A stretch of 64,000 nucleotides of DNA from an uncultured virus (IMG/VR IMGVR_UViG_3300036836_000008) (IMGVR_UViG_3300036836_000008), one strand, 5' to 3'. Positions 2,688 through 32,053 are shown, counted from the stretch's first letter. Numbers and translations are program-made. The notes: a model not told the origin generated them from the sequence alone.

Positions 2688-2921
2688 TCACGCTTTAACT
2701 GCTGAAGCATTTAAATGCTTCAGGTAAGGAAATAGTAAACCCATCCTCATGAGGATGTAGAATCCCCACATGCCGCGCCGTTGCCAGCTCCAAGTCTTCT
2801 TCCTTGGCGGTATTGGGCCGTCAACAGGTATCCTATCGCTTAAAACAAAAAGCCTACCGTAGCGAGGCAAGTAGTCCAGAACTAATATCATCTTGCAAAG
2901 TGCTCTTAGCCAGATATTCAT
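2688..2921 (-). CDS. hypothetical protein starting at tRNA-Ser 3' end
   Basis: ATG separated from the discriminator by one C; MNIWLRALC... Confidence 0.5.
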   Translation of the reverse strand: MNIWLRALCKMILVLDYLPRYGRLFVLSDRIPVDGPIPPRKKTWSWQRRGMWGFYILMRMGLLFPYLKHLNASAVKA

Positions 2922-2922
2922 G

Positions 2923-3006
2923 CGGAAGGTAGAGGAGTCGAGCCCCATAGGTTTCCCTACCATCTATTTAGCAAATAGAGTCACAGACCGCTGTGATTTA
3001 CCTTCC
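2923..3006 (-). tRNA. tRNA-Ser(GCT)
   Basis: GGAAGGT/ACCTTCC acceptor, TCTAT-TTGCTAA-ATAGA, long variable arm, G73. Confidence 0.85.
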
Positions 3007-3037
3007 AAATTGCCTGTCTTTCCAGGCTGTCAAGAAA

Positions 3038-3256
3038 TTAAACCAACTTGTCTACTGGGGTATTTCCATGTCCCCAGAAGTAAGTACCATCGGTAAATCG
3101 GACATCATAGTAGTCAGCTACGCCGCAGCATTCAGGATCGCCACACTCGCCCATATCAATATCGCTGGGCTCGATCTCCTTTACTACACGAAAATCAACA
3201 TCTGTGCGGATAGTGTCACCTTCGCAAACCTCGTAAAGCAGGATCTCCTCAGTCAT
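3038..3256 (-). CDS. acidic hypothetical protein, likely leaderless
   Basis: TAGACA-N17-TAGGAT-N6-ATG. Confidence 0.6.
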   Translation of the reverse strand: MTEEILLYEVCEGDTIRTDVDFRVVKEIEPSDIDMGECGDPECCGVADYYDVRFTDGTYFWGHGNTPVDKLV

Positions 3257-3288
3257 GACACTATCCTAGCACATCAATGTCGTCTTGT

Positions 3289-3765
3289 CTAGTTGGCCTT
3301 CTCGTAAACGGTAATGACCTTCTCCTGCGGAGTCACCTCATAGGTGTCGCCGTCTAGATAACCACCATCATATGAAGCATACCAGCCATCCTTACGAAAG
3401 TATCGAGTAGTTTCTCCATCAGAGATAGAAACAACCATCCAATACTGGTCGCCTTCACCCTCACCACCGTATGCGGCTTCTACCTTTGCGGTGTAATTCT
3501 CATAGGTCTTAGCCTCAGAGCTACCCCAATGGTGCTCCTTCCACATCTGCTCTGAATCGAAGTCAGTAGCTGGGTCAAATGGCTCTACCTCGCCTGACCA
3601 AGAATCTTCGTCGCTGTAGTGAGCAGCTAGGTATTCTTCATAGGTTCCCTCAAAAGATGAACCCCAACGCTGAGGACCACAAGCCGCAGCATATTCTGCA
3701 CGAGTAATAACCTCAAAAGTCTTGGCTACTGCCTCAGGCACGGACATCTCTGCTAGACTAGTCAC
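3289..3765 (-). CDS. hypothetical protein (paralog family, copy 3)
   Basis: C-terminal EVTPQEKVITVYE motif shared with neighbours. Confidence 0.7.
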   Translation of the reverse strand: MTSLAEMSVPEAVAKTFEVITRAEYAAACGPQRWGSSFEGTYEEYLAAHYSDEDSWSGEVEPFDPATDFDSEQMWKEHHWGSSEAKTYENYTAKVEAAYGGEGEGDQYWMVVSISDGETTRYFRKDGWYASYDGGYLDGDTYEVTPQEKVITVYEKAN

Positions 3766-4133
3766 TTACTCTCCCAAACATAGATTGTCTTCTCAGTCTT
3801 CTGTACAGGTGCGATCTCACGAGGATGATAATCGCTACCCTGGAATGATGCATATTCTACAGGTAGCTTATACAGAGCCTCTTCAACTCCATCAGTTACC
3901 TTAAAAACTACGAAACCATCGTTGATGTATCCGTAACCGTATGAATCGTAATTCATCTTAGCGTTGGATGTATCAACCATAGTTACTTCCCAATTCCCAG
4001 GAAGTCCTGTTACAGGAATAACATCTCCTGCATCGATGTAACGGACTTCGTAAAGAAAATCCGCACCCTCATCTGTGTCACCCCATGCTACGAAAGCATC
4101 GCGGACAAGTTCGATATCTGTTACTACTGCCAT
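3762..4133 (-). CDS. hypothetical protein (paralog family, copy 2)
   Basis: C-terminal PVQKTEKTIYVWE. Confidence 0.7.
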   Translation of the reverse strand: MAVVTDIELVRDAFVAWGDTDEGADFLYEVRYIDAGDVIPVTGLPGNWEVTMVDTSNAKMNYDSYGYGYINDGFVVFKVTDGVEEALYKLPVEYASFQGSDYHPREIAPVQKTEKTIYVWESK

Positions 4134-4507
4134 ACTAGTACAACCTTCTCTACTGGTGTTACATTAGTCAGTTCGCCATCCCAGGAAATATGCCCATAAG
4201 AATCACCTGTACCGGTCTTCTTAAAGTAGGCATCACCAACCTGGAATACCAGGAATGTATCAAACTCAGTACCCTGAGGAAGTTCTCCATAGTATGAGTC
4301 GTGATCGATATCGCCGGTGTCGTAATCAGTCTTGGAATCAACTAGTCGCAGGGTCTTACCGTTAGATAGATTCCAAGTAGCGTTCTTGCTGGCACTTTCG
4401 AAGCTGTCCCATCCACCAAGTCTGTTCTTTACATAATCAAGAACAACCTGGCGGTCAAATGCTGGATGAGAAGCTGGTAGTTCAGTCTGACAGGTTGGAC
4501 ACTGCAT
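4124..4507 (-). CDS. hypothetical protein (paralog family, copy 1)
   Basis: N-terminal CPTC, C-terminal NVTPVEKVVLVWQ. Confidence 0.7.
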   Translation of the reverse strand: MQCPTCQTELPASHPAFDRQVVLDYVKNRLGGWDSFESASKNATWNLSNGKTLRLVDSKTDYDTGDIDHDSYYGELPQGTEFDTFLVFQVGDAYFKKTGTGDSYGHISWDGELTNVTPVEKVVLVWQ

Positions 4508-5304
4508 TACATCATTCCTTTCTTAGTCTTGTCTAGAGGCTTAAGCATATGACGCTTTGAATTGTGAATAGCCATGTAGTCGTGAGGTTTGATGAAGTTC
4601 TCAATGTTATTCACGATAAACCTGGCTGACTTTCCGCGAGTCAGCGACGTGATGGTCTTCTTAAGAGCCAGCTTCCATGCAAGTCCAGGACTGAACTTGT
4701 ACTTTGTAGGAATCATCCAGCGCTCAAGTGCAGTAGCCGCAATTTCCTCACGGAAAAGCATTACCTGATTCTCAAATGGCATGCTCCACATCTTAGCAGG
4801 ATCGATATCTACAGTTTCACCATCCTTGAGGATAGCTTCGTATAGTGGACGATCTCCGTAAGCTACAGAATCATGGATAGAATCGTGATCGTAGATTCGT
4901 GTAACAGCGTCATCGAAGAAATCTCCAGCAGACTGAGCTAGATTCATCTGCTTCTTTCCATGAAGCTGAACCCATACAGGGTAAAGTAGCTTATGCAATT
5001 CTAGATCTAGCTTTGCTCCATTACGCTTCAGGAACATCAGATCTGCTACATGCTTATCCCAGCTACCATTCTTAAGTTCCCAATAGGTATGAGAGACCTT
5101 AACAGTATAGAGCTGATCGATAGTAGCATACTGCGCTCCAGGTACATCAAGCTCAGTACCTGCAAAGCTAGCATGCCAGAACATGTCCCCTGGCGGGCCT
5201 TCAGCAATTAGTGACTTAGCAGGATCGTGGAAGTAGTCCAGATCCTTAGGGTTGCGAAAATCAGGAAAATGATGCTTCATAGCTGTAGAGCCAATGATAA
5301 GCAT
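4507..5304 (-). CDS. putative nucleotidyltransferase-fold phage protein
   Basis: N-terminal hhGS...DLD (Pol-beta-like) motif, HDSIH. Confidence 0.5.
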   Translation of the reverse strand: MLIIGSTAMKHHFPDFRNPKDLDYFHDPAKSLIAEGPPGDMFWHASFAGTELDVPGAQYATIDQLYTVKVSHTYWELKNGSWDKHVADLMFLKRNGAKLDLELHKLLYPVWVQLHGKKQMNLAQSAGDFFDDAVTRIYDHDSIHDSVAYGDRPLYEAILKDGETVDIDPAKMWSMPFENQVMLFREEIAATALERWMIPTKYKFSPGLAWKLALKKTITSLTRGKSARFIVNNIENFIKPHDYMAIHNSKRHMLKPLDKTKKGMM

Positions 5305-5620
5305 AATGATTTATTCCTCCGGGAAGTTACCGAAATTGCCGTCAACGGCTATCTTGCCGCTTTGAATGCTCATTACCAAAGCGTTGAAATGAATAGTACA
5401 TAGGTTATGAGGAATAATCATATCCTCGGCGGGCCGGATAGCTACAGAAAATGATGGAGGCATATTACACCCATCAAATCGCTCTAACCCTCTACGCTCT
5501 GCTGCTGTAATCGATGCATAATCTACTGCATCACATTCGATATCGTGAACCTGAACCATATCAGGTGTCAACGGTGTTGCAGTAATAGCTAACAATATAA
5601 CCTTCCTTAACTTATGAGAG

Positions 5621-5712
5621 AGGAAGCACAGGGAGTCGAACCCTCACCCCGGAATTAAACCGCGATGGCCCTGATTTCCAGTCAGGTTAGGCAACCATGC
5701 CAACGTACTTCC
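5621..5712 (-). tRNA. tRNA-Ser(GGA)
   Basis: CCTGA-CTGGAAA-TCAGG, long variable arm, TTCGACT T loop. Confidence 0.8.
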
Positions 5713-5713
5713 A

Positions 5714-6236: not shown

Positions 6237-6318
6237 TGGAAGTGGTGGGGCTCGAACCCACGTGGACCAACTACGGCATTATAATCCCCTGTTTATAAGA
6301 CAGGACCGATACACTTCC
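6237..6318 (-). tRNA. D-armless tRNA-like RNA, anticodon TAT (Ile)
   Basis: GGAAGTG/CACTTCC-A acceptor, 7-nt linker instead of D arm, CCTGT-CTTATAA-ACAGG, long variable arm, canonical T arm. Confidence 0.65.
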
Positions 6319-18749: not shown

Positions 18750-18750
18750 G

Positions 18751-19057: not shown

Positions 19058-19068
19058 TAGTTTTTGCG

Positions 19069-19137: not shown

Positions 19138-19141
19138 TAGT

Positions 19142-19179
19142 GCCGGTTCCTACATTGATTAAAGGGAGGTAAAACCGGC
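19142..19179 (-). repeat. covarying hairpin with anti-SD loop, copy 1
   Basis: GCCGGTT-TTACCTCCC...AATGTA..-AACCGGC. Confidence 0.6.
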
Positions 19180-20659: not shown

Positions 20660-20746
20660 AAGTCTCCATTAAGCCATAGAAACAGCAATAGCCCTAACCC
20701 TACTAGGATCAGAGCTATACCAAAAATCATTACTACAGTGCTCATG

Positions 20747-20848
20747 CTACCATCTATCTATAGCTCGATCACCTATGCCGCCTAGGTGGGGGCAATTTCG
20801 TCCATACCTCAGACGGCAGTATACTGCTGCAATAAAATGCTTTAACAT
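20747..20848 (-). CDS. 33-aa peptide starting at tRNA-Glu 3' end
   Basis: MLKHFIAAVYC...; stop followed after 1 nt by the next ATG. Confidence 0.4.
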   Translation of the reverse strand: MLKHFIAAVYCRLRYGRNCPHLGGIGDRAIDRW

Positions 20849-20849
20849 G

Positions 20850-20924
20850 TAGAATCGACGGGATTCGAACCCGCATCATCCTGATTGAAAGTCAGGGGAC
20901 TTAGTCCATTTAGTCTACGATTCC
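20850..20924 (-). tRNA. tRNA-Glu(TTC)
   Basis: CCTGA-CTTTCAA-TCAGG. Confidence 0.9.
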
Positions 20925-20928
20925 ATGG

Positions 20929-21037
20929 CCCTATCTGGCTGGCCTTGTCCAGCGTTGAGCTATCACCTCAACTGGTCTTGAGAGTACTTTAGTCTGAACG
21001 TGATAGGCTCAATTCATTTCCTCTACACCACATAGGG
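20929..21037 (-). ncRNA. structured RNA with long central arm
   Basis: CCCTAT/ATAGGG, TTGAGC(C)TATCAC/GTGATAGCTCAA, GCTGG/CCAGC. Confidence 0.45.
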
Positions 21038-21100
21038 ATGGCTGACAGGTAAAGTGCTTTTAACGTTGCGACCTGTCATTCACAACAAAGGGTGGGTACC

Positions 21101-21277
21101 CTAAAAATCAAATTCATTCTTCTTAACGCCTGCAATAAATGCTCGCCACTCATCTAGAGTATAACGACACTCATTGCCGAACAGATCATATACAACAACA
21201 GTACCTGGCTCAGACACTGCGTCAACCTCAACACAGGTTCCTGAGGCACAAAATGATGACTTAATTTTATTCTGCAT
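21101..21277 (-). CDS. DUF397 protein (BldB/AbaA-like), 58 aa
   Basis: KSSFC.SGTCVEV...EWRAFIAGVKKNEFD; below ORF-track cutoff. Confidence 0.8.
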   Translation of the reverse strand: MQNKIKSSFCASGTCVEVDAVSEPGTVVVYDLFGNECRYTLDEWRAFIAGVKKNEFDF

Positions 21278-21278
21278 G

Positions 21279-21349
21279 TAGCCCGACGGGGAATCGAACC
21301 CCGACCGTGAGACTGAGAACCTCGTGTTCTACCATTAAACTACCGGGCC
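21279..21349 (-). tRNA. tRNA-Glu(CTC)
   Basis: cloverleaf, loop TTCTCAG. Confidence 0.8.
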
Positions 21350-21416
21350 ATTCTGTGAGCGAAACGCTTAGTCAACATACCCGGGATGCTACTTGCCTGT
21401 CTCGCTCACATGGACT

Positions 21417-21445
21417 ACTTTACTACGTTGTTGAGCTGCTGTCAA
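21417..21445 (-). promoter_or_regulatory. sigma70-type promoter
   Basis: TTGACA-N17-TAAAGT. Confidence 0.6.
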
Positions 21446-21590
21446 CCCCTACTTCTAGGGCCTTTGCTGTCTTTACGCTTAGAAGCTTCATTTAAGGCTT
21501 TGGAACATCCTGTATAAGTAAACTTACCATTACCAGCATGCCCTGAATTGCCTGTCATGTTCTTAGCGTTTTGATTAACTTTCTTACCCA

Positions 21591-21911
21591 TTACTTGAGT
21601 CCTAGTTCCTTCAATGCGAGATCATGGCTTGCATGACGTAGGCAATATTCTGGAATCCAAATCTTGTACTTGAACTTTTTCTCTATCTCAGAGTAATAGA
21701 TTTCAATGTTAACAGGCTTTGACATTCCATCAGAATCGATAAATGCATTGCGCTTCTCTAGATTAGGTAGCACTGCTGGAATGTTCTCGTATCGAATGCT
21801 TACCCATTCACCTTTTTCTCGGCGAGAGAATAGGCCAAACCCATTTGTAACCATTAAGATAAATACAAATAGTACTAACCATCCCCAATTAGCCTCTAAA
21901 AATTCTCCCAT
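21591..21911 (-). CDS. membrane-anchored protein starting at tRNA-Leu 3' end
   Basis: MGEFLEANWGWLVLFVFILMV... Confidence 0.6.
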   Translation of the reverse strand: MGEFLEANWGWLVLFVFILMVTNGFGLFSRREKGEWVSIRYENIPAVLPNLEKRNAFIDSDGMSKPVNIEIYYSEIEKKFKYKIWIPEYCLRHASHDLALKELGLK

Positions 21912-21912
21912 G

Positions 21913-21986
21913 TGCTCACGGTGGGATTCGAACCCACACTGTACCGATTTTAAGTCGGTTGCCTCCTGCCTTTGGGCTACGCGAGC
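21913..21986 (-). tRNA. tRNA-Leu(TAA) (bldA-equivalent anticodon)
   Basis: ACCGA-CTTAAAA-TCGGT, A73. Confidence 0.9.
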
Positions 21987-21991
21987 TTGTC

Positions 21992-22075
21992 GGAAGAGAT
22001 GGAGTTTAGCATGTCGGTAATGCCCGGCCAAAGCCTGTGATTCAGCCGCAGGTGCCCGCTAAACATATCTCTTCC
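21992..22075 (-). ncRNA. structured RNA upstream of tRNA-Leu
   Basis: GGAAGAGAT/ATCTCTTCC and GTTTAGC/GCTAAAC stems with branched top. Confidence 0.45.
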
Positions 22076-22393
22076 AAAGACACAACCTGAGGGATATTAT
22101 CCAAGGCGCTCAGGTTGGGTAAAATTAATTAGGGTTTTCGATAGTAAGGATTTCACCGTGAGATTCGATACGGTCAACAGTAACCACATCATCAGGGGCA
22201 AACCAGAACTGCTTAATGCAAGGAATTAACCCTTCAGCCATAGCCCACAATACAGTAGGATCGTAGGTATTACCTGTAATACCGATTGCTGTACTTGTTG
22301 TACCTGATGCGTTAACGAAATATACCATATACATTCCGCCGTTGACGTGGTTGACTGCCATTTAATTATCCTAACTATTCGGTTAACCTAACG

Positions 22394-22467
22394 TGACTCC
22401 GGTCAGATTCGAACTGACACTACTCAGGGTCTAAGCCTGATTCCTCTACCATTTGGGATACGGAGCC
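22394..22467 (-). tRNA. tRNA-Leu(TAG), short variable loop
   Basis: TCAGG-CTTAGAC-CCTGA. Confidence 0.85.
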
Positions 22468-22502
22468 ATAGAAGAGATAAGTATCTGAGCTTTTGAATTA
22501 AG

Positions 22503-22586
22503 TACCCGTGACAGGATTCGAACCTGCACGCCTTGCGGCATTGGAGCCTAAATCCAACGTGTCTCCCTAATTTCCACCACACGGGC
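22503..22586 (-). tRNA. tRNA-Leu(TAG), long variable arm
   Basis: TTGGA-TTTAGGC-TCCAA. Confidence 0.85.
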
Positions 22587-22931
22587 ATAAGGTAAGGAAT
22601 CCACAGGAGCATGGGATTCACATGGTCGGCGTGGCTACCGCTCTTACTTACCTTGAGTATTCAATTAGATTTGATCGTGAGAGCCGTACCAGCAGTATTC
22701 GCAAAGCCATAGCATAACTATTTCATCACGGATCTCTGCCAGGAAAGGATCTTCAGTGTAGACAACTACACCTTCACCTTTCTTGAGCTTCCATCGGCCC
22801 AACCAGTCTTCCTCGGTACCTACTGGATAAATCTTACCATCGCAGAAGTCACCTTGACAAGCTCTATATTGCATGTTATTTCTCCTAAGTTAGTAGTAAA
22901 CGTCTCTTGTCACGTACTAACTTAGATCTTT

Positions 22932-23498
22932 TCAACTGAAGTGCTTACGAACCTCGGCAAGTGCTGCTGACATTTCTTTGACTTGCTCACTCAATCCTAC
23001 CAGAGATGCCTGCATCTTGGCAAGTTCATCTGTCAACTTCTTGATTCTAACATCCTGCTCATCAACATAAGGCCAAGGTTGCTGTACGCCAAGCCTAGCG
23101 TCTGGTAGAAACTGCTCATACGGTGCTGGCTTATCTGGAGCTGGCTTAGCGAATACCATCCAAGGTGTAAACTTACGTCCAGCTCCGGTAAAGATCTTAT
23201 ATGCAATAGCTACATTAGTAGCTGGATCTCTCCAACGTCCTCCTGCGGCCTGAATCTTAGGATACTGCCAGCGTCCGGATAGTTGGAAAATGCCGTGATC
23301 TCGATTACCAATACTACCAGGATCAGATGTTAATGGTGCAGTAGTACGAGAAATAGCTTCTGAATCTGCACTAGATTCCGCTAAAGCAACAGCGACAGCA
23401 ACTACTGCCTCAGAATCAGAAGTTCCAGGAACTATAGTAGTCTTGCTGAATCCTGCCTTAATGACAAGATCTGCTACTTCATGCGGAGATAGCTTCAT
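22932..23498 (-). CDS. lytic transglycosylase-like (SLT/lysozyme fold) protein
   Basis: AVAVALAESS...D.GIFQ...DPATN...A..I....F.PW; C-terminal coiled coil. Confidence 0.7.
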   Translation of the reverse strand: MKLSPHEVADLVIKAGFSKTTIVPGTSDSEAVVAVAVALAESSADSEAISRTTAPLTSDPGSIGNRDHGIFQLSGRWQYPKIQAAGGRWRDPATNVAIAYKIFTGAGRKFTPWMVFAKPAPDKPAPYEQFLPDARLGVQQPWPYVDEQDVRIKKLTDELAKMQASLVGLSEQVKEMSAALAEVRKHFS

Positions 23499-23623
23499 AA
23501 AATAATCCTAACTAAAATAACTTACCATAGCTCCTGCTACACTTACTGCAACAAATAGAAAAAGGATTACGAGAAACACGATAAAGCTAGGCTTATCTTC
23601 ACGTTTCATAGTAATCCTCCTGC

Positions 23624-23709
23624 TGGCATAGGCGGAGGGATTCGAACCCCCATAGAGCATCCGCTCACGGTTTTGGAGACCGCTGCATTCCCAATTATGC
23701 TACGCCCAT
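23624..23709 (-). tRNA. tRNA-Trp(CCA) with long variable arm, CCA encoded
   Basis: GCGGT-CTCCAAA-ACCGT, GAGC-GGAT-GCTC extra arm, G73. Confidence 0.85.
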
Positions 23710-23759
23710 AAGTGAGTTTCAATTTAAAATCTGCTACAGAAACTCTAACTCTCGCATTG

Positions 23760-23834
23760 ATGCGGAGGCTGGATTCGAACCAGCGGCCTTCAGCATATGA
23801 AACTGACGAGCACTCCGAGCTGCTCCACCCCGCA
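23760..23834 (-). tRNA. tRNA-Met(CAT), initiator-like 5' half
   Basis: TGCGGGGTGGAGCAGC..., loop TTCATAT. Confidence 0.8.
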
Positions 23835-23847
23835 ATGTGATGTACCT

Positions 23848-23876
23848 ATTCTAGTACATCGGTTATTATTTGTCAA
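23848..23876 (-). promoter_or_regulatory. sigma70-type promoter
   Basis: TTGACA-N17-TAGAAT. Confidence 0.65.
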
Positions 23877-23877
23877 G

Positions 23878-23949
23878 TACCGACCCTCGGATTTGAACCG
23901 AGACCTACCAGGGTATGAATCTGGCGCTCTACCATTAAGCTAGACCGGC
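23878..23949 (-). tRNA. tRNA-Met/Ile2(CAT)
   Basis: CCAGA-TTCATAC-CCTGG. Confidence 0.85.
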
Positions 23950-24559
23950 TTAGCTGTTTCCAGCTTACAGCAAATCCTCATCGTTGTCAAGTCGATCTAT
24001 TCCACCGATCAACTCTACAATCCTTGTAGGCTTGTTGTCGATTCTGACAGTAATATTCAATACGTGATGCTCATAATCAGGATCGATTAACCAACGAGTC
24101 TCCACATAAGGTACTACAGTAGGCAGGTTATGCGTAGCTACTATGTCGTCAGACTTAGTAACTCTGCGAAGTCTATCGGCAGCTTGAATCTCAGTATTGC
24201 TCACGCTTGGCCTGCTTCCTGTTGTACTTCTTCTTGTTACGGTGCTTACTGGACGCGCTAGAACGGCGAAGCTCTAGGAGCCGACGCAGCTCTTCACGAT
24301 CCATCTTAGTTTTGATGTACTGCATTGTCAACCCCTATCGCTTTCGTCTTCAGCAATCCATGATCGGATTACCTTCATTGTCTACAGGAAAGTAATTCCC
24401 GGCCTCTACGTTATCACGCACCTGACGCTTAAGTCTAGTAGCACGTCGAGAAAACTCTGCCTGCTCTCGTACTGTCATCAGTGATCCATTAAGTTCGATC
24501 ATCCTGACAATAGCGTCCATCTGATGAAGCAGCTCATCAATCTTTGTCATAGCCTCATC

Positions 24560-24871
24560 CTAACGTATCTGGTTGATGCTGTCAAGGTTTCCGTACGGAG
24601 CCCTGAACTGATCAAGATAACTCCTGGTCACAGCCACATCGCTCCACACGATCTGAGTCTTGCCTCCGTGACCGTGGATGTATTCCACATCTTCAATGGA
24701 ATTATACCACGCTACAGAAGATGTGCTAGTAAGCCATACCATAACACAAGTTCCGTCATCAAACTGAATACCGTTCGCTACAATACCTGTTCCAGACACA
24801 CCGGTTTCATCTTCAATCCTGTCTAGGAGGAATCTTCTCATCTTCAGATTTATCCTTGTCTGGCTTGGCAT
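24560..24871 (-). CDS. hypothetical phage protein
   Basis: R.EDETGVSGTG.VA.G..F.DG...W...IHGHGG.T motif. Confidence 0.7.
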   Translation of the reverse strand: MPSQTRINLKMRRFLLDRIEDETGVSGTGIVANGIQFDDGTCVMVWLTSTSSVAWYNSIEDVEYIHGHGGKTQIVWSDVAVTRSYLDQFRAPYGNLDSINQIR

Positions 24872-25270
24872 AGCTGTCGAAAATGTTGTTAAGTTCTTTT
24901 AGAAGAGTTACGGCTTTATTCCTATCCTCTTCTGACATCTCGTCCCAATCAATTATTTCTTTCCTCTTCGGCATGCTTCCTCCTCATAGTTACACTCATC
25001 CATTCTCCTGGACCCAGCATAAGAGTATCGACAGCAGCCTGAGGTAACTCAAATGCGTCAAAGTCGTATCCAGCAGCATCAGCCATACGCATAACCATAA
25101 GAGCATTACCTACAGAAATAATAGAATGCAATTCCTCTACCTCATCCGCAAGGCAGGCCCAGATTTCTCCACACTCAAATCCTCGCATGAAATCTTCGTC
25201 AGGAGTATCAAATTCGAGAAGAAAGTCTTCGGAATCAAGATGTGCCTTGATTCCTCTCTTTCCTGGCTGT

Positions 25271-25603
25271 TCAGCTCTCATCGGCCTTTGCCCTTCTGAT
25301 GCCGTAATTCTTTCCTCGCTTCTGACCTACCCAACGCCCACTGACAACTCCATGATCAATCAAAGAGTTAAGAGCTAAGTCAAGAAAATCTGCTACAAAT
25401 ATAGGATACCTTACACCTGTAATGACATCCTTTAGATGAAGGTATTTAGCAGATCTGCCAGAAGTCACTCCCTCTTCTATACTCATCGTCGCATGAAAGA
25501 CATCATTATCGTGCCATTCTGCGTCATAAGACGGATAGTGATCTAATTGAACTTGATTTAGGTAGTTTTGGCTGAACGGAAGCTTATAATCTCCACGTGC
25601 CAA
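25271..25603 (-). CDS. hypothetical phage protein
   Basis: GRSAKY...KRGKNYGI. Confidence 0.65.
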   Translation of the reverse strand: MARGDYKLPFSQNYLNQVQLDHYPSYDAEWHDNDVFHATMSIEEGVTSGRSAKYLHLKDVITGVRYPIFVADFLDLALNSLIDHGVVSGRWVGQKRGKNYGIRRAKADES

Positions 25604-25606
25604 TTT

Positions 25607-26545
25607 TTAACTCACCTTCTGTTCGCACAACGGACAAGTGCCAGCATCTACCAACACTTGGTGAAGTTCTTCTTCTGCTGTGATTATAGCAGAGTCTTGT
25701 TCTTCAATGCTAGCAGAAAGTTTGGCAATCTCTTTAACAGACAAGGCTGCGGCGCGTACAAGGCTCTTGAAGTTCTCTAGTTTTTTGTGTGCATCTAGAA
25801 GAGGGCCTATCTCAGGCTCATCTGCTATTTCTTTAAATCCTACAAGGGCTTCAGAAGCCCTGTCTGCGTTAGCTACGACTCTACCCAGTTCAGCAAGCTG
25901 CCTATCAAGATCCTTGGCTGTCTCAAGTTTAAGTTCTGCTTCTGCAATAGCCTTAGCTTGTTTGGGTAAACTACCATACCCCTTAAGTTGAGTAGTAACT
26001 TGATCGAGATCTTTCTTTCGCAGATTCAATACTCCTGATGCTACCTTGACTTTACCGTTAGCTTTTTTAACCGCTTCAAAGATGGTGGACACGTTAGTCA
26101 ACTCACCAAGAATTCTAGCTACATTGCTAGCACCATCTTTAAGCAGATACGGTGCATCGAACTGTCCTGCGAAGTTTATTGAATCTACTTCTTTGGTGCT
26201 CGGCGTGATACCAAGTATGCTCGTAATTTCGGTAGGAACTTGACGATTAAGCTTAGTATAGCTGGATTCTTTGCCGCCCAGCGCAGCAACTTTGTAAGTA
26301 GAGCTGGCATTTGTCTCCCTTTCGATTGTAACAGTATGAGTATCAGTTCTTACTGATACTGCTGCTTTTTTTGTTCCTTGTGTTATGTAATCGGAGTCCA
26401 GTTGATTAGATGCTACGGCCTTCAAGGCTCTAGTAAAAGCAGACTTACCTGAACTGGACGCTCCGACGATTACTGTAAGCTTACCAAGTTCTACGTTAAC
26501 ATCGTGTAAGCTCTGGAAGTTCTTGATACGAATTGAATTAATCAC
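25607..26545 (-). CDS. SbcC/Rad50-like ATPase N-terminal half ending in zinc hook
   Basis: IKNFQS, Walker A GASSSGKS, Q-loop FAGQFD, coiled coil, terminal CPLC; no signature or Walker B. Confidence 0.85.
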   Translation of the reverse strand: MINSIRIKNFQSLHDVNVELGKLTVIVGASSSGKSAFTRALKAVASNQLDSDYITQGTKKAAVSVRTDTHTVTIERETNASSTYKVAALGGKESSYTKLNRQVPTEITSILGITPSTKEVDSINFAGQFDAPYLLKDGASNVARILGELTNVSTIFEAVKKANGKVKVASGVLNLRKKDLDQVTTQLKGYGSLPKQAKAIAEAELKLETAKDLDRQLAELGRVVANADRASEALVGFKEIADEPEIGPLLDAHKKLENFKSLVRAAALSVKEIAKLSASIEEQDSAIITAEEELHQVLVDAGTCPLCEQKVS

Positions 26546-26693
26546 TTCACTTCCCTATTGCAAATCAAGCAATAAATCTTTCCACCATTGATATTTTGCT
26601 TAGTAGAAATTCCATGATTTTTACAATTAGCTACGACGTCTTTTTCTCGATGTTTAGCTTGGTACTTAGTCATTAGATTCTCCTAATACGCAG

Positions 26694-26722
26694 AAAAGAC
26701 CACCCCGTAGGGTGGCCTCTTC
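26694..26722 (-). terminator. intrinsic terminator
   Basis: GGCCACC-CTACGG-GGTGGTC followed by TTTT. Confidence 0.55.
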
Positions 26723-26925
26723 AGTATATCACAGTTCAACAGACTCTACACTAACTTTGCCTGTATCAGTATCTAGACTACAGTGCAAGGTTACTTCATA
26801 GAAGGGTCTCCCGATCATTTGAGCAAATTGTTCAGAGTCCATATCTAAATCTATTTGATCTAGAATCATCTCTGCACGTTCGCGGCCTGTAGCGTCATCA
26901 TGCAGATAGTACTTGAATGGGACCT

Positions 26926-27273
26926 TCACCATTCACGACCTTCCCAGGCAATTCTACGGTGAATATGTCTTGTACGGTTGTCTTCTATTATTGCGTAGTT
27001 CTTCTTACGGCTTCTACGTGACTCTGTCAGATTCTTCGCCTGAGCTAATGTCTTGAACTTAGCTCTACGTGGTGCATGACACCTACAATAACCAAATCTA
27101 ACATCATGCTCAACCAGCATAGCAACCTTACGCCACTGAGAATCGTTAGTCTTCCTCGGAGGCTTGAATGCTGTACCCATGAAAGTCATAGGCTCATGAC
27201 AATGAGGGCAGGTATGAGTTTGCTTAGCGGAGAATCTACACGGAATGCACGTATGTACTACATTACTAGGCAT
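26926..27273 (-). CDS. Cys-rich hypothetical protein
   Basis: CxxC..CxxC, MG.AFKPPRK...W. Confidence 0.6.
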   Translation of the reverse strand: MPSNVVHTCIPCRFSAKQTHTCPHCHEPMTFMGTAFKPPRKTNDSQWRKVAMLVEHDVRFGYCRCHAPRRAKFKTLAQAKNLTESRRSRKKNYAIIEDNRTRHIHRRIAWEGREW

Positions 27274-27296
27274 TGTTATCTCCTAAAATATTAAAG

Positions 27297-27366
27297 TGCC
27301 CCGCCCGGGAGTCGAACCCGGAAGTCCTGGTTTAGAAGACCTGGATGTGTATCCGTCACGCAAGGC
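27297..27366 (-). tRNA. tRNA-Arg(TCT), compact D region
   Basis: loop CTTCTAA, CCGGG-TTCGACT-CCCGG. Confidence 0.7.
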
Positions 27367-27371
27367 ATGGG

Positions 27372-27443
27372 TGCATTGGGCGGATTCGAACCGCATCTTT
27401 CCCTCGAATATCGAGAACGCATTGCCCTAATGCTATCCAACGC
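27372..27443 (-). tRNA. atypical tRNA/pseudo-tRNA with TAT triloop
   Basis: acceptor, D and T arms present; CTCGA-TAT-TCGAG, no U33. Confidence 0.5.
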
Positions 27444-27450
27444 TAACAGG

Positions 27451-27538
27451 GTGCCAGCCCTGCTTTTACCATTACAGCAGCTACGATAGTTACTTGCGGA
27501 CAAGCCACAAGCACTTACCCAATAACCCATGCTGGCAC
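27451..27538 (-). ncRNA. permuted tRNA-like RNA (D arm at 3' side)
   Basis: GTGCCAGC/GCTGGCAC terminal stem; CTGCT-GTAATGGTAAA-AGCAG. Confidence 0.4.
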
Positions 27539-27609
27539 AAAGGTTTTTAACTTGCTGCACCCTCGGTTTCCATTTCCATAAGGAAAGTCTACCGAGCAAA
27601 ACCAAAGCG

Positions 27610-27681
27610 TACCCCCGGCAGGACTCGAACCCGCGCGCCTCCGATTAAAAGTCGGCAGCTCTGCCTCTGAGCTACGAGGGC
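27610..27681 (-). tRNA. tRNA-Lys(TTT)
   Basis: loop CTTTTAA, canonical cloverleaf. Confidence 0.9.
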
Positions 27682-27686
27682 ATGAC

Positions 27687-28016
27687 TTACAATATACTAC
27701 CAAGTACATCTACAGATTGCAAGCGTTGAAAAGTAGTAACATGTGCGTGACAGGACATGCATCTAAGGACACATTTGTCTACTTCAGCCCACAAAACATC
27801 TTTTCTTTTACCTGCAAAAATCTCTCCCATGTTAAAAGATTTTTCTTTAGGATTAACATGATCAAATTCTAATTCTGTAGTTCTCCCACAATCAACGCAC
27901 TTGCTACCAAGATAAACTATGGCTGCATCACGTCTTTGTTTATACCTAAGTTTCATGTAAGCATTCATACGTGCATTGTACTCTTGACGAGTCTCATTTT
28001 TGCGTTGTTTACCCAT
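27687..28016 (-). CDS. HNH endonuclease
   Basis: CVDCG...LEFDH..P..K...E..KC.L.C..CH. Confidence 0.85.
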   Translation of the reverse strand: MGKQRKNETRQEYNARMNAYMKLRYKQRRDAAIVYLGSKCVDCGRTTELEFDHVNPKEKSFNMGEIFAGKRKDVLWAEVDKCVLRCMSCHAHVTTFQRLQSVDVLGSIL

Positions 28017-28079
28017 TTAAACTCCTAGTCGATTTTTAATGTCAAGGTCAGAACCGACTAAGAAACTGACCTTGACAAG

Positions 28080-28151
28080 TGGGTCGCACGGGATTCGAAC
28101 CCGCACCTGGCTCCTTAAGAGGGAGTAATGCCACCGTAACACCTACGACCC
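28080..28151 (-). tRNA. tRNA-Lys(CTT)
   Basis: CTCC-CTCTTAA-GGAG. Confidence 0.85.
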
Positions 28152-28205
28152 TTACCGCAGCATACCTGCAAGCTAGCAGAGGATTTGCACCTCAGTATAC
28201 TGCTG

Positions 28206-28225
28206 AACGATGTTGCAACATCGTT
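28206..28225. repeat. perfect 20-bp palindrome
   Basis: AACGATGTTGCAACATCGTT. Confidence 0.8.
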
Positions 28226-28228
28226 TTG

Positions 28229-28303
28229 TAGGGGTTACTGGATTTGAACCAGTGGCTTCCATTTTGTAAGAATGGCACTCTACCCAGGCTGAGTTAAACC
28301 CCC
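28229..28303 (-). tRNA. tRNA-Val(TAC)
   Basis: CCATT-CTTACAA-AATGG. Confidence 0.9.
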
Positions 28304-28553
28304 ATATTATCTTGTAATGCTTTGAACCAGCCAAACTGAACGGCTGTCCTTCTTGTGTGGCAGTTAGCACATCTTACCACACACTTTGCAATCTCGTCAA
28401 GCATCTTAGGCCAAGAAAACCCACCCTTAACCATGTGAGCAATATTATACTTCTTTTGCTTTTGGTTTCAAGTTTGTTAGAATACATCCAGTACATACGC
28501 ATATCACAGCGCCCACATGGACAAGTAAATTACTGTGTATTCTAAGTTTAGCA

Positions 28554-28655
28554 AGATAAATGAAGGAATTGAACCTTCGAGCGGGCCGTCGCCCTATTCG
28601 CCTTTGACTTGAACCGTTCTCAACAGGAATCGAACCTGATTACTCCCCATTTATC
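28554..28655 (-). ncRNA. double T-arm tRNA-like RNA
   Basis: GATAAAT/ATTTATC acceptor-like stem; CAGG-TTCGATT-CCTG and GAAGG-TTCAATT-CCTTC. Confidence 0.6.
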
Positions 28656-28664
28656 CATCTTACG

Positions 28665-28737
28665 TGGAGCCACGGGGAGTCGAACCCCGTCCTGAAGTTT
28701 GCAAAACTTCCGTGCCAACCCTTAACACCTTGGCCCC
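28665..28737 (-). tRNA. tRNA-Ala(TGC)
   Basis: G3.U70, GAAGT-TTTGCAA-ACTTC. Confidence 0.9.
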
Positions 28738-28988
28738 ATTGAGGTAAGAAGTGTGCTTAGGCGGGCCGACCTTAGGTCATGACTCCCTCGGTGCCGCCAC
28801 CTTCTTACCCTTACTACCTTACATGTTCATCGGACCTTTGTCAAGCTCTCTGGCAAGATTTACCCAACCATTTGCGATCTTAACTCTGACCTCAGCCTTC
28901 TCATCCCTGCCTGTAGCAACTTCTCGCTCAGCAGCTTCAAGATTAAGCTGTGCCTGCTCTAACATCTGCTTCCATGTCTTCATGCTCA

Positions 28989-29648
28989 TCAGTCTAGCAG
29001 CAGGCCGTAAAGATCGCAACCCTTGAGCTTAACGATGACACGATCACCCTTACGGTTGAATAGAGGCATAGATGGAGTACCTACCATACCTTCTGCGTCC
29101 TTGAAATCCTTCGCTATGGCAGAAATCAACTCAGTTGCAGACATCCACTTGATAGCTGCACGTAGAGTACCTTCCCAAACTACAGGTACTACATTGATTC
29201 CAAGAGAATCAGCAATCTCCTCTACCTTATCACGCATAAGCCACCAACCATCGATGTAAATGTCGAATAAAATAAATGACTTATCTGTTCGGTAAAGACC
29301 GCCTCCCTTTTGGATTCCTGCGCCGTAACCCTCACCATACAGAGTTACGGGTGTTGCACCAAAAGTTTGTTCCATAAGCTCTTCAGGAAACATCTCAGTT
29401 AGAGCCTCTAGAAGACCGGGAGGAAATTGTGCCTTATCGGTACGGCCACGGAATTCAGGCTTATGCCCATCCCAGATTACACGGATGTTAGTTCCGTCAA
29501 TCTTTTCAGTAAAGGTCCACACATTATCTGCTAAGTAAGCAAACTCAGGAGTTGACCAATCCCAAGGAATAAGCTTATTCTTATTAGGGCCTGATACGTG
29601 GCGCTTGAACGGGCCGGAGATCTTGTGGTATTCCTTCATTTCGTCCAC
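28989..29648 (-). CDS. RNA ligase (Rnl2-like adenylation domain)
   Basis: TEKIDGTN, LYGE, FILFDI, EGMV, VKLK motifs. Confidence 0.85.
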   Translation of the reverse strand: MDEMKEYHKISGPFKRHVSGPNKNKLIPWDWSTPEFAYLADNVWTFTEKIDGTNIRVIWDGHKPEFRGRTDKAQFPPGLLEALTEMFPEELMEQTFGATPVTLYGEGYGAGIQKGGGLYRTDKSFILFDIYIDGWWLMRDKVEEIADSLGINVVPVVWEGTLRAAIKWMSATELISAIAKDFKDAEGMVGTPSMPLFNRKGDRVIVKLKGCDLYGLLLD

Positions 29649-30013
29649 CCCTTTCTTTGTGATAGTTGCTTATGTCTGTCAATTAGCATTTCACGCAATT
29701 CCATTTTGCGATTGAGACTCTTGCGTATGCGAGCTAAGGCACTCTGACAGTCTTCAATCTCTTTATCTATTCCTGCAATCTCATCTGCTAATTCTTCTGC
29801 ATTAAGATCCAGGTAATCCTCTAACTCGTCCATCGTAGCTACTCTCTGATCAAAAGTCCAGTCCACCTGATGCACTTAGCGTCCAACAACCTAGAACTGC
29901 TAGAATAAGTCCTGCAATAATAGCAACAGGCCAAATAGCAGATAGAACGAAGTGGATAACCAAAGTAGCAATGATCCAGAGAACTACTGTAACAATTAGT
30001 TCAGCCATGTGCC

Positions 30014-30646
30014 TCAGCTTACCTTATCACTGTCGGGGTTGTCAACCTCATACACATCATAGATTCTGAACTTATCATGTATCCTGCTGGTAGTAGGTCC
30101 GGCTTGATTCTGGTAATGGGAGTTTGACCACCTTCCTCCATAAATCAAGGTAGTAGGTTCAGGCAATTTGAAGAAAGCTAGTTGCCCGATCTTCATGCCA
30201 GGGATCAGAATGATAGGCATTGTACCTACATTACTAAGTTCTAATGTGATTTGACCTTCAAAACCAGGATCAATGAACCCAGCCGTAGCATGAATAATCA
30301 GTCCTAGCCTGCCTAAAGAACTCTTGCCTTCGAGCCGAGAAAGGATATTAGAATTAAGAGCGATGGTCTCGTGTGTATGCCCTAACACAAATGCTCCTGG
30401 CCTCAGAATCAGTTCTGATCCTTTAGGTACATGAACATCAGCAAAGTAATCAGAACTATCTTCCCTAGGATCGATAACTACTTCGGCCTGATTGTAATCA
30501 GCATAGTCAGGAGAAAACTGTACCTTAAAATCTGGACCTAAGGTTACATCGTAGCTACAGGGCTGAATCAACTCCGGCCTGTAAGGATGGATAATAATAC
30601 TCTTAAATCCAATTTCCTCTTCAATATTCCTGTTAGATAATAGCAT
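30014..30646 (-). CDS. dcd: dCTP deaminase
   Basis: QPCSYD, EGKSSLGRLGL..H.TAGFIDPGFEG.ITLE. Confidence 0.95.
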   Translation of the reverse strand: MLLSNRNIEEEIGFKSIIIHPYRPELIQPCSYDVTLGPDFKVQFSPDYADYNQAEVVIDPREDSSDYFADVHVPKGSELILRPGAFVLGHTHETIALNSNILSRLEGKSSLGRLGLIIHATAGFIDPGFEGQITLELSNVGTMPIILIPGMKIGQLAFFKLPEPTTLIYGGRWSNSHYQNQAGPTTSRIHDKFRIYDVYEVDNPDSDKVS

Positions 30647-30962
30647 CGTTTTCCCAACGTATTTTGGCATTTCCTTGCTCATCTATTCTAACATCTAGAA
30701 TAGTGTCTACACTAGCCTTGAGCAGATTCAATTCAATCTTCTTGCCTTCGGGCACATATTTTCTCAGCAGTAACCCGAGAATGGCTTCATATATTTTCAG
30801 CTTCTCATCTTTGACATTAAAAAACCTGGATGCTAAGAAATCATCCAGGCTTAATGGCTCGTTATTAATTAGTACCACTCTCGACTTTCATAGAAAAAGA
30901 GGCCGCACCATAACCAGCAGAGAGTCTATGCTCGTCTACCAATTTGGAATTGGCCTCAAAAA

Positions 30963-31313
30963 TTAATACGTATGGTACCTTGCATGTCCTGAGTCTACCA
31001 TACGATCGTTGATCGATGCAACCCTGGTGAAATCTTCTCCCCACACCCAGATGTCTCCAAGGTATCTACCATATTTTTCTTTCTTGTCTTTTATAGTCAG
31101 CAGGTAGACTGCCTTCAAACTGCCGTCAGGGTTAGTCAACAAATCCCTCAGCCATGCTTGAGCTGCTACCCCTTCAGGTGTTCCGCGCTCTGGTGCGTTA
31201 ACTCTGTTGAACCTGATACGCATATCTTGCCATAAATCCGCACCTGCGTCGCGTTTAACATCTATTGTGTCAGCATCGACGATAGCAACTACTTTAGCGT
31301 AATAATCATACAT
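30963..31313 (-). CDS. thermonuclease (SNase-like)
   Basis: VDADTID, IR....APE, KYGRYL. Confidence 0.85.
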   Translation of the reverse strand: MYDYYAKVVAIVDADTIDVKRDAGADLWQDMRIRFNRVNAPERGTPEGVAAQAWLRDLLTNPDGSLKAVYLLTIKDKKEKYGRYLGDIWVWGEDFTRVASINDRMVDSGHARYHTY

Positions 31314-31412
31314 AAGAAAAAACTCCCATCTGCATTGATGAGAGTTTAATCGGTAGAAAATGGGGGCTGAACGCACCACGCGCTACGTACGAATCGAACG
31401 CACAACCCCAAG

Positions 31413-31491
31413 AGCAGATAGGGGGAATCGAACCCCTGACATAAGACGCCTTTTGCAGAGGCGCGGCTGCCACCAGCAACCTTCTATCCGC
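31413..31491 (-). tRNA. tRNA-Cys(GCA) with extended 6-bp D stem
   Basis: CGCCT-CTGCAAA-AGGCG, U73, GGTTGC/GCAGCC. Confidence 0.75.
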
Positions 31492-31613
31492 ACGCGCGGG
31501 AGCAACTTACAGCCTGACGCATGCTCACAAGCCTTAGATGGTCTCCCTAGGATTTGTCGTGACCTGCCCTACAGGTTCAAATTCAGACAAACATTTATGT
31601 CTGAACGCAAAAG

Positions 31614-31760
31614 TCAGTGCCCGTGCTTCTTGCGAAACTCTCTATCGAGATTTTCTACATTCCTATTGTGCTCTTCTCGAAGTTTCTGGTTGTTCATGTC
31701 CTTGCGCGCCTTTGCGCCAGACTTCTTAGCTTTACTGTGCAGTTTATCTAGTTTATCCAT
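31614..31760 (-). CDS. 48-aa basic peptide starting at tRNA-Thr 3' end
   Basis: MDKLDKLHSKAKKSG... Confidence 0.5.
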   Translation of the reverse strand: MDKLDKLHSKAKKSGAKARKDMNNQKLREEHNRNVENLDREFRKKHGH

Positions 31761-31761
31761 G

Positions 31762-31836
31762 AGCCGACAGTGGGATTCGAACCCACGACCTCTTTCTTAC
31801 CAAGAAAGTGCTCTAACCAGGCTGAGCTATGACGGC
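31762..31836 (-). tRNA. tRNA-Thr(GGT)
   Basis: CTTTC-TTGGTAA-GAAAG. Confidence 0.9.
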
Positions 31837-31837
31837 A

Positions 31838-31981
31838 TTATTGTACTTGACCACATTTTAGATGTGTAATTCTCCCGTTAACGGCATACCATCCAGTACT
31901 GCTCTTGCAAGTACTACAATAAGCCTTAACGCCATTCTTCTTAAGAGTTCCCTGAGTAATCACTTCAACAGATTTAGCCAT
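31838..31981 (-). CDS. 47-aa Zn-ribbon-like peptide filling tRNA-Gly/tRNA-Thr spacer
   Basis: MAKSVEV...CSTC...HLKCG; one spacer base on each side. Confidence 0.55.
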   Translation of the reverse strand: MAKSVEVITQGTLKKNGVKAYCSTCKSSTGWYAVNGRITHLKCGQVQ

Positions 31982-31982
31982 G

Positions 31983-32053
31983 AGCGGAAGACGGGAATCG
32001 AACCCGCGACAAATGATTGGAAATCACTTATGTTACCTCTACACCACATCCGC
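31983..32053 (-). tRNA. tRNA-Gly(TCC)
   Basis: AGTGA-TTTCCAA-TCATT, U73. Confidence 0.9.

Follow-up and report, generated by a model that had tools for sequence, protein, structure and literature searches.

In animal mitochondria, coding regions abut tRNA genes of the same strand and excision of the tRNAs is thought to set the ends of the mRNAs, an organization reportedly described as tRNA punctuation by Ojala, Montoya and Attardi in 1981. The mRNAs of this system are leaderless and devoid of Shine-Dalgarno (SD) sequences. Here, we describe an arrangement of this kind in a stretch of 64,000 nucleotides (nt) from an uncultured virus (IMG/VR IMGVR_UViG_3300036836_000008), hereafter called the window, where the start codons of small open reading frames (ORFs) immediately follow the 3' ends of tRNA genes or of tRNA-shaped RNAs. 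We discuss to what extent these frames may be expressed from leaderless mRNAs made by tRNA 3' processing.

Other described systems share some of these features. The t-elements of plant mitochondria are presented as non-decoding tRNA-like structures that act as processing signals for mRNA ends (Forner et al. 2007, PMC1920247). In archaea and plants, dicistrons of a tRNA and a small nucleolar RNA (snoRNA) are reported to be processed by RNase Z, and 3' processing of the upstream tRNA frees a second functional RNA (PMC4247193). Leaderless mRNAs are reported to be common and well translated in actinobacterial host groups (PMC4633059, PMC4681348), with 264 leaderless genes in Streptomyces coelicolor (PMC4681348). 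In mycobacteria, an ATG or a GTG forming the first bases of the mRNA is reported to be both required and enough; TTG and CTG fail, and a start codon placed further inside is probably used with lower efficiency (Shell et al. 2015, PMC4633059). Cleavage by MazF has been proposed as a source of leaderless mRNAs in Escherichia coli (mentioned in PMC4681348 and PMC4633059), and a review table citing E. coli work gives a 5' phosphate as enhancing leaderless translation. Our full-text literature search, with subscription journals outside it, returned mitochondrial punctuation, plant t-elements, and actinobacterial leaderless genes as known systems, and no tRNA-punctuated leaderless genes in phages or bacteria.

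Start codons flush with tRNA ends

ARAGORN identified 26 tRNAs in the window, all on the minus strand, and Rfam 24. The Rfam tRNA model stops at the discriminator base (N73), and the ARAGORN end lies one base beyond it. This base 74 is a C in all 26 ARAGORN tRNAs: 24 of them end in N73-C and two carry a full CCA. The register was verified by hand on tRNA-Glu(TTC), where seven acceptor pairs are followed by A73, C74, and ATG. At five of the 26 tRNAs, all found by both programs, the ATG of an ORF comes directly after C74, i.e., the coding region abuts a tRNA of the same strand with 0 nt in between. In what follows all features are on the minus strand and the second coordinate of each frame is that of its ATG. 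tRNA-Glu(TTC) (20849-20924, C74 at 20849) is followed by a frame of 33 amino acids (aa) at 20747-20848, tRNA-Glu(CTC) (21278-21349, C74 at 21278) by one of 58 aa at 21101-21277, and tRNA-Leu(TAA) (21912-21986, C74 at 21912) by one of 106 aa with an N-terminal hydrophobic stretch at 21591-21911. The other two stand in tandem: tRNA-Gly(TCC) (31982-32053, C74 at 31982) precedes a 47-aa frame with a CxxC...HxxC motif (31838-31981), and tRNA-Thr(GGT) (31761-31836, C74 at 31761) precedes a highly charged 48-aa frame (31614-31760). Two further N73-C-ATG junctions occur at tRNA-shaped RNAs. One is a tRNA-Ser(GCT)-like cloverleaf (2922-3006, N73 a G at 2923, C74 at 2922) followed by a 77-aa frame (2688-2921), and the other is a 135-nt RNA (18750-18884, N73 a G at 18751, C74 at 18750) followed by a 72-aa frame (18531-18749).

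A preliminary description of this DNA had listed N73-C-ATG at seven tRNA or tRNA-like genes, and the ARAGORN ends, the sequence, and the folds bear this register out at all seven positions. Five of the elements are ARAGORN tRNAs, while the remaining two were detected neither by ARAGORN nor by Rfam (E <= 1). That each ATG opens an ORF of 33-106 aa is correct as to length, with the reservation, discussed below, that the 33-aa and 77-aa frames are doubtful as genes. The spacer said to be filled by an ORF is the one between tRNA-Gly and tRNA-Thr: a single nt separates the TAA stop codon of the 47-aa frame from the 5' end of tRNA-Thr, so that the frame fills it.

These junctions are unlikely to be fortuitous. 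The frequency of ATG on this strand is 0.023, which gives P(>=5 of 26) = 2.8e-4, and the frequency of an ATG opening at least 33 codons is 0.0074, which gives P(>=5 of 26) = 1.3e-6. When all 32 tRNA or tRNA-like ends are counted, P(>=7 of 32) = 3.4e-9 at this last frequency. There is no ATG-ORF starting 1-9 nt after C74 in the window, and the remaining post-tRNA genes that were inspected start at least ~16 nt downstream, with an AGGAG-type SD ahead.

This spacing bears on the possibility that real genes were simply packed against tRNAs, and are translated by SD-independent internal initiation or standby on uncut polycistronic RNA. Packing is tight in this phage, where stop and start codons overlap, and a crude measure finds no clear SD at roughly one third of the first starts of 52 long ORFs, as expected if compaction were the whole explanation. 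Yet the spacing is all or none, with 0 nt in five to seven cases and the other inspected genes well downstream behind an SD. Moreover, an AUG placed 2 nt from a stable acceptor helix would presumably have no single-stranded landing site. We regard plain compaction as rather unlikely, and return to it with the data from other phages.

Coding potential of the flush frames

We scored the frames with a codon log-likelihood trained on 41 long ORFs. In-frame windows of 45 codons have a mean score of 0.355 (5th percentile 0.092), and 31 off-frame ATG-ORFs have a mean of -0.189 and a maximum of 0.12. Five of the seven flush frames score between 0.198 and 0.426, above the maximum of the off-frame set: these are the frames of 72 aa (0.426), 58 aa (0.350), 106 aa (0.260), 48 aa (0.228), and 47 aa (0.198). 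The 33-aa and 77-aa frames both score -0.012, and we consider them doubtful as genes; the latter has no Pfam and no PHROG match.

Two of the five have recognizable relatives. The 58-aa protein matches DUF397 (PF04149) with 26.8 bits, above the gathering cut-off of 24, its residues 6-52 covering profile positions 5-55 of 55, i.e., nearly the whole profile, which agrees with its initial assignment to this family. The 72-aa protein, which ends in WDTGIAP, matches phrog_23179 (3.8e-5) and has 10 homologues at 43-61% identity, most of them with N-termini within a few residues of this ATG; relatives are encoded at 46 viral loci. Hence, five flush frames look coding, the DUF397 gene and the 72-aa gene by their families and the other three by codon usage.

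An exhaustive search with the 47-aa ORF gave five matches, which we took as spurious. Four of them are short stretches of proteins of 426-2113 aa, three of which have 5-26 matched stretches, and the fifth is a 91-aa protein (E 8e-4). The Atlas placed YhfH-like small proteins near this ORF with a score of 0.92, on few shared features, and we retain this as a lead only.

The frames are also tied to their downstream neighbours. The stop codon of the 106-aa ORF shares one base with the ATG (21591) of the ORF that follows. The TAG of the 33-aa frame is followed, after 1 nt, by the ATG of a 29-aa hydrophobic ORF (20656-20745), itself joined by an ATGA overlap to a 147-aa gene of the YspA/SLOG family (ATG 20659). 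The 33-aa frame, at the head of this coupled chain, may thus serve as a ribosome entry point, whatever the role of its peptide.

Could the ATG instead be a trailer or processing motif of the tRNA, with some or all of the short frames not being genes? Positions 75-77 are indeed biased in the window (A in 11, T in 17, and G in 12 of the 26 tRNAs), and another viral fragment described below, G002, has an A at position 75 in 20 of 20 CCA-less tRNAs. The ambiguous codon scores of the 33-aa and 77-aa frames and the lack of relatives of the 47-aa and 106-aa frames also fit such a motif. This view is contradicted by the DUF397 match above the Pfam cut-off, by the conserved family of the 72-aa protein, and by the five codon scores exceeding those of all 31 off-frame ORFs. 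Furthermore, all five tRNA-flush ATGs open at least 33 codons, whereas the four TTGs and one GTG found in the same position open just 3-28, and among the IMG/VR matches listed the ATG frame is open in 59 of 107 cases against 9 and 8 for the two other frames. A mere trailer motif seems to us distinctly improbable.

Absence of ribosome-binding sites and promoters at the flush starts

None of the seven flush starts has an SD motif. The energies of their duplexes with the anti-SD range from +0.7 to -2.5 kcal/mol, to be compared with a median of -5.55 for the first starts of the 52 long ORFs and -2.2 at random positions. The early remark that these starts leave no place for an SD is in full agreement with these values. 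The 20 nt upstream of the flush ATGs belong to the T and acceptor arms of the tRNAs and, on visual inspection, contain no TANNNT at the usual distance from any of the seven. Likewise, in the region covered by a consensus scan, none of the five tRNA-flush ATGs is preceded by a promoter match with the end of its second hexamer 6-8 nt away.

These negative results concern the possibility of primary leaderless transcripts, with a promoter inside the tRNA gene and transcription starting at the A of the ATG. This is the usual origin of actinobacterial leaderless genes, including the 264 reported in S. coelicolor (PMC4681348), and the sigma-70-like factor encoded in the window (51195-51929, Pfam) could use promoters of its own. 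The existence of this factor implies phage-specific promoters, which a consensus scan would miss. However, with no TANNNT box seen, transcription is unlikely to begin at the A of the ATG, and the sequence ahead of it, which varies across the seven junctions, is under the constraint of the acceptor and T arms. Since no -10 hexamer was seen by eye just upstream of the seven ATGs, we did not class these genes as ordinary leaderless genes, and we find it hardly probable at all that they are transcribed in this way.

Between a flush tRNA and its ORF, both on the same strand, there is no space for a promoter or a terminator, and promoter-like sites are found upstream of the tRNAs. These sites are consensus matches only. 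A TTGACA-N17-TAAAGT (21417-21445) lies ~70 nt upstream of tRNA-Glu(CTC), and a terminator-like hairpin (21089-21102) follows the DUF397 gene. A TTGACA-N17-TAGAGT (32958-32986) precedes the run Arg-Asp-Gly-Gly-ORF47-Thr-ORF48. A third match, TTGACA-N17-TAGAAT (23848-23876), is flush after tRNA-Met, and its -35 box is one of the four post-C74 TTGs. Across the actinophage tRNAs, TTGAC occurs at offset 0 after C74 in 6 of 290, with TAnnnT 17 nt further on in three of them; such promoter-like TTGACA boxes flush after C74 were seen in the window and in four of the actinophage loci (L003, L004, L023, L028).

Site of cleavage of the tRNA precursors

The preliminary description assumed that the pre-tRNA is cut after N73. 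The published 5'-end maps of S. coelicolor and Propionibacterium acnes, in the parts of these papers that treat tRNA ends, place the cut after C74 instead (PMC4681348, PMC3848588). In S. coelicolor, 53 of the 65 tRNA genes lack CCA (Romero et al. 2014, PMC4681348). Table S4 of that study draws the mapped sites, which are the 5' ends of the downstream product, as C|CA, GCAc|gc, GCTc|tg, or CTAc|tc. By our reading of the table, 43 of the 44 rows include a cut right behind the C next to N73, the exception being tRNA22-Met; four rows (CCAc|) are ambiguous (PMC4681348). In P. acnes, cleavage within CCA is described as 'always between the Cs', by an enzyme given as unknown, a tRNase Z homologue being not evident (Lin et al. 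2013, PMC3848588). If the cut is after C74, the C remains on the tRNA and the trailer begins with AUG and not with CAUG, in line with the 5'-terminal start codon needed for leaderless translation in mycobacteria (PMC4633059). Correcting the cut site thus helps the leaderless reading.

The tRNA genes of the window are built on the actinobacterial plan, in which N73 is followed by an encoded C74 without a full CCA, position 75 being a base other than C. For comparison, we analyzed nine cultured actinophages, six of Streptomyces and one each of Mycobacterium, Microbacterium, and Rhodococcus, with 264 tRNAs in total (loci L002-L052). Their tails are N73-C or CCA in all but two of the 264 tRNAs, and when the window is included position 75 is a C in just 2 of 269 CCA-less tRNAs. 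Two control phages do not follow this rule: Bacillus phage Deep Blue (19 tRNAs: 9 CCA, 4 C, and 6 other) and Salmonella phage Arash (25 tRNAs: 22 CCA and 3 other). The C74 rule characterizes the host group, and the tail N73-C74-nonC (or full CCA) could be used to mark the host group of uncultured phages. The phage studied here is a novel, low-GC one with tRNA genes of actinobacterial design, and its host is probably an actinobacterium.

The window contains other tRNA-like sequences. A candidate tRNA at 6237-6318 was missed by ARAGORN (Rfam tRNA, 37.3 bits) and is followed by N73-C. Another, at 5622-5712, was also missed by ARAGORN; it reaches 45.5 bits with the tRNA-Sec model, under the cut-off of 47, and is probably a long-arm tRNA. 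Outside the ARAGORN tRNAs there are four more T-arm-like motifs (5-bp stem, TTCRANN loop) without C74, with N73 positions at 31379, 28554, 16359, and 8251, which could be degenerate tRNA remnants or chance occurrences. At 27297-27443, the ARAGORN predictions tRNA-Asn(ATT) and tRNA-Arg(TCT) overlap by one base, and our T-arm scan puts the discriminator of tRNA-Arg(TCT) at 27297, one base past the ARAGORN register.

The tRNA-shaped RNAs

The elements at 2922-3006 and 18750-18884 were reported neither by ARAGORN nor by Rfam (E <= 1) and we do not count them as canonical tRNAs. Both have a 7-bp acceptor stem, a T arm, N73, and C, followed by the ATG. The Ser-like element (acceptor GGAAGGT/ACCTTCC) folds as a type-II cloverleaf with the anticodon loop TTGCTAA, and its T arm is weak (4 bp). 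The RNA at 18750-18884 has a D arm with GG and a T arm (TAGGG-TTCGAAT-CCCTA), and a long insert replaces its anticodon arm. In their resemblance to t-elements, both could act as processing signals.

We considered two other identities and rejected them. ARAGORN found no transfer-messenger RNA (tmRNA) at 18750, and the partner of the 7-bp acceptor strand is local, 135 nt upstream. The idea of a Ro/Y-RNA system came from phage GiJojo, whose tRNA array includes a Ro-like gene; we found no Ro/TROVE domain among 65 ORFs of at least 90 aa and no Rfam Y-RNA.

The 135-nt RNA is one of three tandem tRNA-shaped RNAs at 18750-19143 (135, ~122, and ~70 nt), each with an N73-C end. None has a normal anticodon arm, and one carries a UUCG-capped hairpin in its place. 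They sit downstream of an HNH endonuclease gene and match no Rfam family and nothing in the phage collection. The 72-aa gene also has a homologue in an unrelated viral contig of 193 kb (L076:2345-2482, GC 39%), and there again it comes after a tRNA-like RNA, of ~124 nt, missed by ARAGORN. This RNA has an encoded CCA, and an AAGGA SD precedes the ATG of the gene. The combination of a tRNA-like RNA and this gene recurs with a different mode of initiation.

The flush register in other phages

To see how general the register is, we searched IMG/VR with a pattern made of a canonical T loop and 11 bases, then a C, a gap of 0, 1, 2, or 5 bases, and ATG. Each scan returned at least ~120 loci, which makes the fractions comparable and not the totals; we counted unique hits with a paired T stem, and took a frame as open if it had at least 33 codons. 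Among the matches listed, the ATG frame was open in 59 of the 107 unique hits at offset 0 (+1 frame 9, +2 frame 8). The corresponding values were 28 of 114 at offset +1 (16 and 23), 22 of 115 at offset +2 (16 and 16), and 19 of 110 at offset +5 (23 and 23). Fisher tests of offset 0 against the others gave P between 5e-6 and 5e-9. This excess at offset 0 indicates that, among these matches, phage gene starts in the flush register form a class of their own, and a widespread one.

One example is a 24-kb viral fragment (G002, GC 42%) with 23 ARAGORN tRNAs in 13 kb (L602, G002:C1:10500-24190). All 20 of its CCA-less tRNAs have C74-A75. An ATG is flush after the tail of seven tRNAs, and three of these ATGs open ORFs of 114, 51, and 89 aa.

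The cultured actinophages gave another picture. Their starts are scattered 0-7 nt after C74 with no sharp peak at 0, which is what plain compaction of genes would produce; in contrast, an excess of open ATG frames at offset 0 only, as seen among the IMG/VR matches listed, is not predicted by compaction alone. Annotated genes also start 2 and 6 nt after C74, e.g., BillNye gp010 starts 2 nt after C74 of tRNA-Thr. In BillNye and Wakanda, a flush GTG after tRNA-Gln(TTG) opens an annotated 120-aa endonuclease gene; in Wakanda, the annotation of the tRNA ends at 86970 and the endonuclease coding sequence starts at 86971. The annotated starts in these two phages are precedents for the arrangement of the window.

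The flush endonuclease genes raise the question of whether a flush junction is the scar of an insertion, left for instance by the traffic of homing endonucleases, rather than an expression device. The window has HNH endonuclease genes in its tRNA region (19188-19673 and 33188-33637, Pfam), as one would expect of such an accident of mobile DNA, and the flush GTG genes of Wakanda and BillNye are annotated as endonucleases. However, the seven junctions involve different tRNAs and unrelated ORFs in one shared single-base register, the flush ORFs of the window are not nucleases according to Pfam and PHROG, and a scar would leave the expression of these genes unexplained. We judge this origin very improbable.

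A proposed mechanism

The tRNAs and the small genes are all on the same strand, and their co-transcription is most likely. A host endonuclease cutting after C74 would free the tRNA, to be completed by the CCA-adding enzyme. What remains downstream would have a 5' phosphate and start exactly with A-U-G, i.e., it would be a perfectly leaderless mRNA, which actinobacterial 70S ribosomes could translate without an SD site. In the uncut precursor, the AUG would be poorly accessible, being 2 nt from the acceptor helix and without SD, and given this inaccessibility the expression of the small proteins would depend on tRNA maturation. At least five genes use the flush arrangement. The 47-aa ORF, with a tRNA on both sides, would be excised as little beyond its reading frame, and the non-decoding tRNA-shaped RNA at 18750-18884 would serve mainly as a processing mark.

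What we observed in the window is the arrangement, its statistics, the absence of SDs, and the coding nature of five ORFs. The cut site, taken from S. coelicolor and P. acnes, and the leaderless rules, taken from mycobacteria, both come from published work. From these elements we infer the cutting of the phage precursors after C74, the co-transcription, and the translation of the products. We consider it somewhat probable that tRNA 3' processing after C74 yields leaderless mRNAs for these genes, and each of the rival explanations accounts for less of the evidence. The same role of tRNA processing had been put forward in the preliminary description; the spacing, the lack of SD, the presence of real genes, the common strand, and the absence, by eye, of a -10 box speak for it, while its premise of a cut after N73 had to be abandoned.

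Several observations weigh against this mechanism. Some concern the genes: the scores of the 77-aa and 33-aa frames lie between the coding and non-coding distributions, a word-based search with the 47-aa ORF gave no candidate, the homologue search with the 106-aa ORF returned itself alone and all its Atlas rows were below the bar, and the 48-aa ORF, which was searched no further, has no Pfam or PHROG match. Others concern the steps of the process: the C74 cut was mapped on host tRNAs and not on phage precursors, with the enzyme unnamed in both papers, and translation of leaderless mRNAs with a 5' monophosphate is reported for E. coli only, in the review table. Since about one third of the 52 long ORFs have no obvious SD at their first start (a crude call), SD-less initiation may also occur by other means. 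Finally, the arrangement is not general. The count of N73-CATG-ORF cases across phage arrays, suggested at the outset as a test, gave the excess at offset 0 among the IMG/VR matches listed, but the 264 tRNAs of the nine cultured actinophages yielded just 3 flush ATG-ORFs (30 codons or more), for ~2.4 expected per offset. The tRNA cluster of Microbacterium phage Magritte, the nearest isolate by PolA (37% aa identity), has 0 flush genes. The flush arrangement is rare in cultured actinophages, and this argues against a universal mechanism.

More tentatively, we propose that actinophages, perhaps also other phages, may use the C74-specific pre-tRNA endonuclease of their host as a site-specific maker of mRNA 5' ends, with the flush gene released only on tRNA maturation and some non-decoding tRNA-shaped RNAs persisting purely as punctuation.

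Genomic context

The window has a GC content of ~44% and a negative GC skew throughout, and all 70 listed ORFs of at least 90 aa are on the minus strand. The Pfam scan covered 65 of these 70. The larger ORFs encode functions of phage replication and nucleotide metabolism (PolA, DnaB, RecA, sliding clamp, dUTPase, dCTP deaminase). Besides the HNH endonucleases and the sigma-like factor, Pfam identified an RNA-repair-type HAD domain (14046-14522, minus strand) and an RNA ligase (28989-29648, minus strand), both among or near the tRNAs, which may protect the tRNA pool of the phage.

No close relative was found in the phage collection, where only single tRNAs match, best to Streptomyces phages; in particular, a megablast of positions 20000-33000 gave matches to single tRNAs only. 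Searches for related loci with the 72-aa, 106-aa, and DUF397 proteins taken singly gave no locus, and neither tblastn of the DUF397 protein nor blastn of the tRNA-like cluster matched the phage collection. The nearest record (G001) shares 38% of the words of the window, and apart from short matches these lie outside positions 1-33000.

Comparison with known systems

If the proposed mechanism is true, it would be a phage counterpart of mitochondrial tRNA punctuation, and would add to the bacterial routes to leaderless mRNAs, beside transcription from the start codon and cleavage by MazF. Besides supplying tRNAs, phage tRNA genes would provide processing signals in place of ribosome-binding sites, and would couple the synthesis of small phage proteins to tRNA maturation. 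This would explain why tRNAs are scattered among tiny ORFs in many large actinophage genomes, and would give a function to the 'unusual' C74 cut reported unexplained in two transcriptome papers. It would also provide a start-codon rule for gene callers, which are now inconsistent at such starts.

The likeness to animal mitochondria is closest for the ORF at 31838-31981, bounded by tRNAs on both sides. Unlike mitochondria, this is a bacterial virus relying on host enzymes, in which just five to seven genes are punctuated and most genes keep an SD. Furthermore, the register is here set by the encoded C74, with a cut after C74 and not N73, and the system is known from sequence. The RNA at 18750-18884 and the Ser-like element at 2922-3006 could act like plant t-elements (Forner et al. 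2007, PMC1920247); they differ from these by their phage context, by ending exactly at a start codon, and by a processing that is only predicted.

As in actinobacterial leaderless mRNAs, there would be no SD and the start codon, ATG or GTG, would form the first bases of the mRNA (PMC4633059, PMC4681348). The known leaderless mRNAs are described in these papers as primary transcripts with a -10 box, whereas the 5' end proposed here is made by cleavage and would bear a monophosphate. The window tRNAs share with the C74-cut pre-tRNAs of S. coelicolor and P. acnes the N73-C74 end, present in every one of them, and the same predicted cut (PMC3848588, PMC4681348). In their sections on tRNA ends, these two papers describe tRNA maturation only, and make no link to translation of the downstream fragment. 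The tRNA-snoRNA dicistrons are similar in that an upstream tRNA releases a second RNA, yet the RNA released there is described as non-coding, whereas the product proposed here is an mRNA (PMC4247193).

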